From Escherichia coli (GTDB lineage: Bacteria; Pseudomonadota; Gammaproteobacteria; Enterobacterales; Enterobacteriaceae), in assembly GCF_965641715.1 (NCBI RefSeq), contig NZ_OZ282453.1: a DNA stretch of 64,000 bases. One strand, 5' to 3'. Positions within the stretch are counted from its first letter, which is position 1, and each line of letters opens with the position of its first letter. Below the pieces are notes generated by a model. That model made no database searches, was not told the origin of the DNA, and worked only from the letters and a program-made list of their open reading frames with translations. This document shows, piece by piece, positions 8,455-27,171 of this stretch. Made by a program: the position numbers and the translations under genes.

Positions 8455-8596
8455 CTGATGCGACGCTGCCGCGTCTTATCATGCCTACCAAACATATTGA
8501 AATTACGGGTATTTGTAGGACGGATAAGGCGTTCACGCCGCATCCGGCATTCGGTGCACGATGCCTGATGCGCCACGTCTTATCAGGCCTACAAAA
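8455..8596. repeat. REP/BIME palindromic repeats in the yjjX-trpR intergenic region
   Basis: imperfect palindromes gcctgatgcgacgctg...cgtcttatcaggcctac and gccggatgcggcgtgaacgccttatcc. Confidence 0.6.
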
Positions 8597-23587: not shown

Positions 23588-25138
23588 ATGCCCACTTCTC
23601 ATGAAAATGCACTGCAACAACGTTGCCAGCAAATTGTCACCAGCCCAGTGCTTAGCCCGGAGCAGAAGCGCCATTTTCTGGCACTGGAAGCAGAAAACAA
23701 TCTGCCTTACCCACAGCTTCCTGCCGAAGCCCGCCGCGCGCTGGATGAAGGTGTAATCTGCGATATGTTTGAAGGTCATGCGCCGTACAAACCGCGCTAT
23801 GTCTTACCCGATTACGCCCGTTTTCTGGCGAACGGTTCCGAATGGCTGGAGCTGGAAGGCGCGAAAGATCTTGATGACGCACTCTCTCTGCTGACCATTC
23901 TTTACCACCACGTACCGTCGGTCACATCGATGCCGGTCTACCTGGGGCAACTGGATGTGTTGTTGCAACCGTATGTTAGAATTCTAACACAAGACGAGAT
24001 CGATATTCGAATAAAACGTTTCTGGCGTTACCTCGACAGAACCCTGCCAGACGCCTTTATGCACGCCAATATCGGCCCGTCTGATTCGCCCATTACCCGT
24101 GCAATCTTACGTGCAGACGCAGAGTTGAAGCAGGTTTCACCGAACCTGACCTTTATCTACGATCCTGAAATCACCCCTGATGACCTGCTGCTGGAAGTGG
24201 CGAAAAACATCTGTGAATGTAGCAAACCGCACGTCGCCAACGGTCCGGTGCATGATAAAATTTTCACAAAAGGGGGCTACGGGATTGTGAGCTGTTACAA
24301 CTCACTGCCGCTGGCGGGTGGTGGCAGCACGCTGGTACGCCTTAACCTGAAAGCCATTGCCGAGCGCAGCGAATCGCTGGATGACTTCTTTACGCGCACT
24401 CTACCGCACTACTGCCAGCAGCAGATCGCCATCATCGATGCGCGGTGTGAATTCCTCTATCAACAATCACACTTCTTTGAGAATAGCTTCCTGGTGAAAG
24501 AAGGGCTGATTAACCCTGAACGTTTTGTGCCAATGTTTGGCATGTATGGGCTGGCGGAAGCGGTTAACTTGCTGTGTGAGAAAGAAGGGATTGCCGCGCG
24601 CTACGGTAAAGAAGCCGCCGCAAATGAAGTGGGTTATCGCATCAGCGCGCAACTGGCGGAGTTTGTCGCCAATACCCCCGTGAAATATGGCTGGCAAAAA
24701 CGCGCCATGTTACACGCACAGTCGGGGATCAGTTCCGATATCGGCACCACGCCGGGCGCGCGTTTGCCGTATGGCGATGAGCCAGATCCGATCACCCATC
24801 TGCAAACTGTCGCCCCGCATCATGCTTATTATTATTCCGGCATCAGCGACATTCTGACGCTCGACGAAACCATCAAACGTAACCCGCAGGCACTGGTACA
24901 GCTTTGCCTCGGTGCCTTTAAAGCCGGAATGCGTGAATTTACCGCCAATGTCAGCGGTAACGATCTGGTTCGCGTTACCGGTTATATGGTGCGTTTGTCA
25001 GATTTAGAAAAATATCGCGCCGAAGGTTCACGTACCAACACCACCTGGCTGGGCGAAGAAGCCGCACGCAACACTCGTATTCTGGAACGCCAGCCGCGCG
25101 TGATAAGCCATGAACAGCAGATGCGCTTTAGTCAGTAA
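23588..25138 (+). CDS. yjjI: glycyl-radical-enzyme-like protein YjjI
   Basis: 516 aa, conserved neighbour of deoC and paired with an activase gene. Confidence 0.85.
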
Positions 25139-25973
25139 GGTTATCCCCTTCTCCTGCGTTGACGGGCCAGGCAGTCGTCTGGCTCTGTTTTTGCAGGGCT
25201 GCAATCTGCGCTGCAAAAACTGTCACAATCCGTGGACGATGGGACGTTGCAATGACTGTGGGGAGTGCGTGCCACAGTGTCCGCATCAGGCGTTGCAGAT
25301 TGTTGACGGCAAAGTGGTGTGGAACGCTGTGGTTTGCGAGCAGTGTGATACCTGCCTGAAGATGTGTCCGCAACATGCCACACCAATGGCGCAATCCATG
25401 AGCGTGGACGAAGTGCTTAGCCATGTCCGCAAAGCGGTGCTGTTTATCGAAGGGATAACGGTGAGTGGCGGTGAAGCCACGACCCAGCTGCCGTTTGTGG
25501 TGGCGCTGTTTACTGCCATCAAAAACGATCCGCAACTGTGCCATCTCACCTGCCTCGTGGACAGTAACGGTATGTTGAGCGAAACCGGCTGGGAAAAATT
25601 ACTCCCGGTGTGCGACGGCGCGATGCTCGATCTCAAAGCGTGGGGGAGCGAATGTCATCAACAATTAACCGGACGCGATAATCAGCAGATTAAGCGCAGC
25701 ATCTGTTTGCTGGCAGAGCGCGGCAAGCTGGCGGAACTGCGTTTGCTGGTAATCCCTGGCCAGGTGGATTATTTGCAACACATCGAAGAACTGGCGGTGT
25801 TTATCAAGGGACTTGGCGATGTTCCGGTACGCCTGAACGCGTTTCATGCCCACGGCGTGTATGGCGAGGCGCAAAGCTGGGCGAGCGCCACGCCGGAAGA
25901 CGTTGAGCCGTTGGCTGATGCGTTAAAGGTGCGCGGGGTGAGCCGGTTGATATTTCCGGCGCTGTATTTGTGA
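25110..25973 (+). CDS. yjjW: glycyl-radical enzyme activating protein YjjW (radical SAM)
   Basis: 287 aa, cysteine clusters CxxCxNPW and ferredoxin-like CPxxA, overlaps yjjI end. Confidence 0.85.
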
Positions 25974-25974
25974 C

Positions 25975-26395
25975 ATGCCGGATACGGCCTACGGTTCGGC
26001 ACAGACTTGTAGGCATGATAAGACGCGACAAGCGTCGCATCAGGCATTGTGCGCCAACTGCCGGATGCGGCGTGAACGCCTTATCCGGCCTACGGTTCGG
26101 CACAAACCTGTAGGCATGATAAGACGCGACAAGCGTCGCTTCAGGCATTATGCGCCGACTGCCGGATGAGGCGTGAACGCCTTATCCGGCCTACGGTTCG
26201 GCACAGACTTGTAGGCATGATAAGACGCGACAAGCGTCGCATCAGGCATTGTGCGCCAACTGCCGGATGCGGCGTGAACGCCTTATCCGGCCTACGGTTC
26301 GGCACAAACCTGTAGGCATGATAAGACGCGTTAAGCGTCGCATCAGGCATTATGCGCCGACTGCCGGATGCTGCCTACGAAGGGCAAACTACCCA
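25975..26395. repeat. tandem array of about 4 BIME/REP units (period about 98-100 bp)
   Basis: near-identical repeats of gccggatgcggcgtgaacgccttatccggcctacggttcggcacaaacctgtaggcatgataagacgcgacaagcgtcgcatcaggcat... Confidence 0.75.
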
Positions 26396-27171
26396 CGAAC
26401 GTTAAACACCGCATACGTGTTATTAAGCAACACTTCGGCAATCTCATCCGCGGGTTCCGGGCGTAACTCGCAAAGCACGGCAAACACACGGGCAGCATGC
26501 TCCGGGCGGTTAGGCTGCCCCTGAAAACCGTTGAGCGGCATATCCGGCGCATCGGTTTCCAGCAACAACGATGCCAGCGGTAATTTTGCGATGACATCGC
26601 GGGTTTTACTGGCGCGTGGATAGGTGATAGTACCGCCTACGCCGATTTTGTAGCCCAGCTGTACAAACCGTTCAGCCTGTTGCTGGCTGCCAGAAAATCC
26701 GTGGACAACACCAGCACGCGGCAAATCGTGGCGTTTAAGATGCATCGCCAGTTTGTCGTGCGTGCGCCGTGAATGCAGGATCACCGGCAGATCGTAGCGT
26801 TTCGCCAGTTTCAGTTGTTCGTCGAGTAACCACTGCTGCCTCTCAAATTGCGGATCGTCGCCAAAGAGATCCAGACCGATCTCCCCCACCGCCACCACCT
26901 TCGCCGGACGCCTTTCCAGCGCCTGCTGTAGCTGCTCAAGAGACACATCGCTATGTTTTTCCAACATACCAGGATGCAAGCCCAATGCGGCATACAGCGG
27001 TTGATAATTTTCCGCCAGCGCCAACACACGGGCAAAATTTGCCGCCTCTGTCGCCGAAACAATAATCTTGCCTACGCCCGCTTGTGCCGCGCGTTGCAGG
27101 CTGGCCTCTTCATCGCCACTAAACGGCGGGAAATCAAAATGGCAGTGGGTATCGATAAAACGGCAAATCAA
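26389..27171 (-). CDS. yjjV: TatD-family metal-dependent hydrolase YjjV
   Basis: 260 aa, N-terminal DTHCH motif (MICRFIDTHCHFDF). Confidence 0.8.
   Translation of the reverse strand: MICRFIDTHCHFDFPPFSGDEEASLQRAAQAGVGKIIVSATEAANFARVLALAENYQPLYAALGLHPGMLEKHSDVSLEQLQQALERRPAKVVAVGEIGLDLFGDDPQFERQQWLLDEQLKLAKRYDLPVILHSRRTHDKLAMHLKRHDLPRAGVVHGFSGSQQQAERFVQLGYKIGVGGTITYPRASKTRDVIAKLPLASLLLETDAPDMPLNGFQGQPNRPEHAARVFAVLCELRPEPADEIAEVLLNNTYAVFNVRG

Follow-up and report, generated by a model that had tools for sequence, protein, structure and literature searches.

A tandem REP array assigned by sequence to BIME-2 between the convergent genes yjjW and yjjV of Escherichia coli

Structure of the intergenic array

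The window, i.e. the whole 64-kb stretch of Escherichia coli DNA analysed in the present study, contains a tandem REP array that fills the gap 25974-26388 between the convergent genes yjjW (+) and yjjV (-). On the left flank, yjjW (glycyl-radical enzyme activase; 25110-25973, + strand) is an ORF of 287 aa with the stop TGA at 25971-25973. On the right flank, yjjV (TatD-family metal-dependent hydrolase; 26389-27171, - strand) is an ORF of 260 aa, and its stop TAG is the reverse complement of 26389-26391. Both genes were named after their counterparts in annotated E. coli records, in which the identity of the flanks reaches 99.9%. The array adjoins both gene ends, each of the two genes stopping within 3-15 nt of it, and the left Y REP begins 2 nt past the yjjW stop. 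A preliminary description of this DNA had placed the array downstream of yjjW, which was correct concerning the adjacency and incomplete in that the array sits between the 3' ends of two convergent genes. Inside yjjW, an exact sigma-54 binding motif, CTGGCTCTGTTTTTGCA, was observed at window 25179-25195 (+), and this motif has been reported as the intragenic site IS57 in K-12 (PMC4591121).

The repeat homology spans ~25976-26378 of the window, head-to-tail, with 3.8-3.9 copies and 93% identity. One array was reported by Tandem Repeats Finder, at 25985-26371 (no strand assigned), with a period of 101, 3.8 copies in the order A-B-A-B', 93% matches, 0% indels and a score of 690. A separate repeat search revealed three 192-nt copies starting at 25977, 26078 and 26179 (spacing 101 + 101), with identities of 93-100%. 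When the array was cut at the period of 101, units 1 and 3 were identical (101/101), units 1 and 2 matched at 95/101 positions, and the divergence of unit 4 was confined to the contact with the right flank. The self-match at a shift of 202 bp was nearly perfect; therefore, the array reads A-B-A-B', with a higher-order period of 202 bp. Compared with dinucleotide shuffles, the folding of the region gave z = -9.3 (+ strand) and z = -7.2 (- strand), and these scores, together with the identical 101-bp units, rule out a chance origin. The earlier claim of near-identical tandem REP/BIME units beside yjjW is thus confirmed by the measured copies and matches, and the number of about four units holds in substance; the proposed unit length of 98-100 bp has to be replaced with 101 bp. 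Of the extent first proposed, 25975-26395, the left part was retained and the right limit was not. The homology stops at ~26378, and the array is limited there and not at 26395, because the stop codon and coding sequence of yjjV start at 26389.

Each unit comprises a Y REP of 34 nt (+), a 16-nt tail-to-tail linker, an inverted Z REP of 37 nt and a 14-nt head-to-head linker, giving a sum of 101 bp; the two REP palindromes per unit noticed at the outset are therefore one Y (+) and one inverted Z in each. The Y REP reads GCCGGATGCGGCGTGAACGCCTTATCCGGCCTAC on the + strand, and the Z REP is GTAGGCATGATAAGACGCGACAAGCGTCGCATCAGGC in + strand reading. Seven intact REPs, four Z and three Y, were observed, together with one Y remnant at each end. 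The array begins with a collapsed Y REP (25976-25992, +), in which TGCCGGATA is directly joined to CGGCCTAC and the central 18 nt are gone; the intact version is present in PE164, AHB5 and L1PEag1. Z REP no. 1 (26009-26045, -), which is GCCTGATGCGACGCTTGTCGCGTCTTATCATGCCTAC in - strand reading, is an exact copy of the search pattern with a hairpin of ~-15 kcal/mol, and Y REP no. 1 (26060-26093, +) folds at -21.3 kcal/mol and shows the mismatch of two bases in the stem by which Y REPs are characterised. Z REP no. 2 (26110-26146, -) has 1 mismatch to the pattern of the Z in unit 1, and Y REP no. 2 (26161-26194, +), which carries GGATGAGGCG (C to A), folds at -25.7 kcal/mol with a stem fully paired in RNA. 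Z REP no. 3 (26211-26247, -) and Y REP no. 3 (26262-26295, +) were located by pattern match, and Z REP no. 4 (26312-26348, -), with the loop variant TTAA, by pattern match and allele comparison. The array ends in a collapsed right Y REP (26362-26378, +), in which, compared with the internal Y copies, TGCCGGATGC is joined to TGCCTAC and the central 18 nt are gone.

By the published definition, a REP is an imperfect palindrome, 30-40 nt in length, whose stem carries a conserved tetranucleotide, GTAG/CTAC, at its base (PMC3333891). All seven intact REPs of the array are palindromes with CTAC at the end (Y, + strand) or GTAG at the start (Z, + strand reading), at an extragenic site between the stops at 25973 and 26389. 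Folded in isolation, the Z hairpins reached ~-15 kcal/mol and the Y hairpins -21 to -26 kcal/mol. The collapsed left Y remnant reached -6.8 kcal/mol compared with -21 for an intact Y, and the loss of REP hairpin formation is predicted for this remnant. An inverted-repeat search with 9-nt seeds gave no match in the array because the REP stems are interrupted, and the hairpins were shown instead by folding each REP. Y no. 1 and no. 3 have both GTAG and the two-base stem mismatch, and one mismatch is closed in Y no. 2 (26161-26194), where GGATGAGGCG in place of GGATGCGGCG closes one of the two. The binding and cleavage of REPs by TnpA_REP in vitro require the stem mismatch (PMC3333891).

Class identity and related arrays

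REP/BIME arrays have been known since the 1980s-90s. Judged from its sequence, the array described herein is the BIME-2 array that E. coli carries in the yjjW-yjjV gap, known as REP352a-h in K-12. BIME-2 elements combine Y REPs with inversely oriented Z2 REPs; they are repeated in tandem, their linkers are short, and their copy number varies between strains. BIME-1 elements are not repeated, and their long L linker often bears an IHF site (PMC3333891). The array has 3.8 tandem copies, linkers of 14 and 16 nt without an L linker, and a strain-variable copy number. Every unit comprises a Y and an inverted REP of Z type, either Z1 or Z2, so that an atypical BIME is still conceivable. Alternating Y and Z, short linkers, tandem arrangement, conservation within the locus and strain-variable copy number are all shared with the BIME-2 family of Gilson/Bachellier (PMC3333891), with no essential difference in the features compared.

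The array shares with REP352a-h of K-12 MG1655 (EcoCyc name) the locus, the flanking genes, the 101-bp unit, the four Z REPs, the collapsed left Y and the alpha-beta-alpha-beta order of linker variants, and the identity with MG1655 was 95.7% over the full 1.4-kb query (array and flanks). The two arrays are several point substitutions apart, and K-12 REP352 has four units with 8 intact REPs and a complete right Y, whereas the window has 7 intact REPs and a collapsed right Y. The name REP352 for the yjjV-yjjW array comes from the text of bioRxiv 10.1101/2024.07.17.603846, and RefSeq NC_000913.3, in which the K-12 locus corresponds to 4,614,261-4,614,679, has no repeat_region feature annotated there. 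A 2024 preprint lists only eight REP regions with DNA that is shielded from exonuclease under SDS or copper stress. K-12 REP352 is one of them, and it is the sole one of those eight not predicted by RAREFAN as a RAYT-associated REPIN.

On the - strand, in the orientation of the yjjV 3'UTR, three units (26012-26090, 26113-26191 and 26214-26292) matched Rfam RF02564 (naRNA4) with 76.7, 68.6 and 76.7 bits, compared with a gathering score of 59.5. The fourth, truncated unit reached 30.3 bits (- strand), and the + strand gave 47-53 bits, under the gathering score. The Rfam scan of the array revealed naRNA4 only, apart from a snoZ206 match that was rejected as noise (E = 0.75). The RF02564 family was built on the REP325 array, which has been described as Y + Z2 (PMC4550694). 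The present array and K-12 REP325/naRNA1-6 (yjdM-yjdN) share tandem Y + Z doublets with a period of 100-101 bp, their order and orientation, and an RF02564 match per unit. REP325 differs in having a period of 100 bp, 5.8 copies, the linkers AACGGTGCCGACT and AAATTCCCGCACCCTCC and a shorter Z loop. Moreover, REP325 lies inside a co-directional operon and attenuates the downstream gene, whereas the yjjW-yjjV array lies between convergent genes.

Some E. coli BIMEs are bound by IHF (PMC3333891; PMC1525189), and IHF binding had been offered as an option in the preliminary description. This option was abandoned. An IHF-binding element of the BIME-1/RIP type is a single Y-L-Z1 with the IHF site in a long linker, whereas the array is tandem, with linkers of 14 and 16 nt and no L linker; in addition, the IHF consensus WATCAANNNNTTR occurs on neither strand of 25961-26400, with only two occurrences in the whole 64-kb window. 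It is therefore very improbable that the array belongs to this type. An even smaller chance is given to three further readings, namely coding sequence, an array of the CRISPR kind and an artefact of assembly. ORFs of 47-69 aa can be called mechanically across the repeats, and the regular spacing superficially resembles that of a CRISPR array. However, the whole 101-bp unit including the linkers is repeated, hence unique spacers are absent, the ORFs arise artefactually where a GC-rich palindrome is repeated between convergent genes that are both complete, and the architecture recurs in thousands of independently finished genomes. Thus, the sequence and this recurrence rule out all three. The identity of an intrinsic (Rho-independent) terminator was also considered and rejected: the GC-rich REP hairpins of the array are without a T run (the U tract in RNA), and a terminator scan of 25974-26388 detected no canonical intrinsic terminator between yjjW and yjjV. 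A promoter scan of the array yielded one weak - strand promoter-like match, no more than in shuffles.

Copy number and history of the locus

A flank-only query (400 bp of yjjW and 400 bp of yjjV) had a match in 5,423 of 5,426 complete E. coli genomes. The number of units was derived from the inter-flank distance, i.e. the intergenic length, in an evenly spread sample with 59 usable rows. Intergenic lengths of ~30, 112, 213, 314, 415, 516 and 617 bp form an allele series of 0, 1, 2, 3, 4, 5 and 6 units. Among the 59 sampled genomes, one unit (~112 bp) was the allele of 19, five units (~516 bp) of 13, two units (~213-225 bp) of 11, four units (~415 bp) of 10 and three units (~314 bp) of 5, and one genome had no unit and one Y REP only (~30 bp). 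The six-unit, 617-bp allele is present in Eco_70239 and in at least about twenty further records. The preliminary description had held that the copy number varies between strains, and this comparison of complete E. coli genomes, with 0-6 units, agrees. The exact allele of the window was not found among the 5,426 complete genomes. Among the matches listed, those with the nearest flanks include Res13-Sevr-PER07-33 (99.9%) and A30, with two units each, and JX21CE8, 23CRST027, 23CRST031 and KV7, with four units each. The occurrence of two and four units in close relatives appears consistent with the gain or loss of a 202-bp A-B block. The smallest allele is a single Y REP, and at least one REP was kept in every sampled genome with the locus (5,423 matched).

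Fourteen alleles were read unit by unit, and two linker variants were observed in differing orders: alpha-beta; alpha-beta-alpha-beta; alpha-beta-beta; and alpha-alpha-beta-beta-beta-beta. Unequal exchange would produce such a shuffled linker order. Three distinct right junctions also exist among the alleles. In the K-12 type, the tail of a complete Y REP provides the yjjV stop, and YjjV ends in ...NVP-stop with 259 aa. In window-type alleles, the right Y is collapsed and followed by GAAGGGCAAA, and YjjV ends in ...NVRG-stop with 260 aa. JKHS016 has a third, separate right junction. The C-terminus of YjjV is hence set by the REP junction; AHB5 resembles K-12 in this respect (...NVP-stop, 259 aa), with the stop inside the CTAC/TTAC tail of Y.

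The left end varies as well. AHB5 has a lone complete Y REP, which starts 2 nt past the yjjW stop and overlaps the stop codon of yjjV with its tail. The array of PE164 comprises four units, and its left-most Y is intact and shares the AHB5 diagnostic bases GTAAACGCCTTGTC. In PE164, AHB5 and L1PEag1, the intact left Y at the window position is TGCCGGATG(C/T)GGCGTAAACGCCTTGTCCGGCCTAC. The left Y of the window, and that of 11 further alleles among those read, has lost 18 nt between CGGC direct repeats, and a loss of this kind would be a classic outcome of slippage across a hairpin. In unit 2 of the array of TB06051, a 19-nt deletion has removed half a Z REP along with a portion of the head-to-head linker. 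In E. coli L1PEag1 (NZ_CP145513.1, 4401-5869), the IS3-family element IS1397 lies in the loop of a single Y REP at the orthologous locus, between GGCGTAAAC and AAACGCCTTG, with an apparent 4-bp duplication of AAAC. The specificity of IS1397 for REP loops has been published, and the insertion in L1PEag1 agrees with it.

Herein, we propose a sequence of events for the locus. The array is a 101-bp doublet (Y, 16-nt linker, inverted Z, 14-nt linker) amplified in tandem, and a comparison of E. coli alleles suggests that it grew from a single resident Y REP 2 nt past the yjjW stop. The copy number shifts by steps of 101 or 202 bp, with unequal recombination or replication slippage between the units as the likely cause. 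TnpA_REP (yafM), the REP-associated transposase, might assist in changing the copy number, and deletions of 18-19 nt that collapse the hairpins are a further kind of change.

Possible roles of the array

Transcripts entering the array from either side would carry stable REP hairpins, as predicted by folding, and by analogy with the class, these hairpins are expected to form part of the 3' end of each convergent transcript. The array most likely acts as a two-way barrier, which would shield the upstream mRNA from 3'-5' decay and would also limit read-through into the opposing gene. As DNA, the array might be a preferred site of cleavage and binding for DNA gyrase. Gyrase targeting and the stabilisation or termination of 3' ends are documented roles of the BIME-2 class, and we infer them for the yjjW-yjjV array by analogy. 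Gyrase cleavage sites are over-represented in BIME-2, favouring Y REPs, and behave as strong and transcription-independent sites (PMC6379681), and BIME-2 sites tend toward the borders between supercoiling regions (PMC10592627). REP325 acts as both a terminator and a stabiliser, with the upstream mRNA stabilised and an attenuation that is partly Rho-dependent; expression is higher for convergent gene pairs that have a REP, and many of these REPs coincide with bidirectional terminators (bioRxiv 10.64898/2026.03.23.713779). The same report describes REP effects as context-dependent, with an mRNA half-life that is not uniformly lengthened. In the supplements consulted, PMC6379681 has no entry for yjjV, yjjW or REP352, and bioRxiv 10.64898/2026.03.23.713779 gives only a yjjW differential-expression row, uninterpretable here.

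Alleles with 0-6 units all persist, and a single REP is enough in some; therefore, little, if anything, essential depends on how many units are present. Much of the variation in copy number is probably neutral, and the unit number is probably near-neutral, at most tuning the effects of the class. Altogether, we consider it highly probable that the element is a REP352 BIME-2 array that has grown by doublet amplification, with the barrier and gyrase roles of its class and a largely neutral copy number.

A different explanation, to which we give a minor but real share of credence, is that the array is purely a selfish or neutral doublet of REPs, similar to a REPIN, which owes its amplification to TnpA_REP/RAYT or to slippage and is tolerated between two gene ends without any function for the host. 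The range of 0-6 units with no preferred number evident agrees with this, as do the hairpin-destroying deletions at both ends of the array and inside that of TB06051, the linker variants shuffled among alleles as under unequal exchange, and the cleavage and recombination of BIMEs by TnpA_REP in vitro (PMC3333891). However, a complete absence of function is difficult to reconcile with the retention of at least one REP in every sampled genome with the locus (5,423 matched) and with the class-level effects on gyrase, termination and stability, and among the 8 REP regions protected from exonuclease in K-12, REP352 alone was not called a RAYT-associated REPIN by RAREFAN. Much less credible is a nucleoid-organising role, in which naRNA4-like transcripts and HU would bridge REP cruciforms and condense the chromosome. 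Such a model has been put forward for REP325 (PMC4550694), and three - strand units of the array exceed the Rfam naRNA4 threshold, although this match mirrors the shared Y/Z REP sequence and is not a functional test. Moreover, the naRNA4/HU model is contradicted by bioRxiv 10.64898/2026.03.23.713779, so that the function is disputed even for REP325, and unchanged Hi-C contacts or nucleoid volume after the deletion of REP325 had already been reported.

The BIME-2 reading with class-level roles could be extended to a regulatory one, which we regard as doubtful. The collapses of the end REPs and the 0-6 units might together form a heritable, coding-neutral dial on YjjW/YjjV output, with the collapses perhaps selected. 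Likewise, it is a long shot that natural alleles would switch the stop-codon-proximal REP hairpin on and off, the left Y being intact in rare alleles, e.g. PE164 and AHB5, and collapsed by the 18-nt deletion in most strains. In a cited model, REPs within ~15 nt of the stop codon reduce the translation of the upstream gene; if this holds, a dial on YjjW/YjjV output would follow.

The array is of little importance in itself: its class is old, the locus is named in EcoCyc, and BIME-2 copy-number polymorphism has been published. The element, its class, the K-12 name, the polymorphism and the candidate roles are already in the literature, and little is added here, namely the allele series of the yjjW-yjjV gap and the finding that the end REPs near the stop codons have collapsed recurrently. 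For annotation, short ORFs across the array should not become gene calls, and the Rfam naRNA4 matches should be read as "BIME-2 unit" and not as a dedicated sRNA gene. The locus acts like a 101-bp VNTR and differs even among close relatives, with consequences for assembly and typing. The allele series, with a single REP, 1-6 units, collapsed end REPs and the IS1397 insertion, provides a compact natural test set, suited to the question of how REP number and proximity to the stop codon bear on the effects on convergent genes. Elsewhere in the window, a smaller second BIME (Y +, Z -, Y +) was observed at 12839-12988 and a lone Y REP on the - strand at 8515-8548; no other REP cluster within the 64 kb comes near the yjjW-yjjV array in size.
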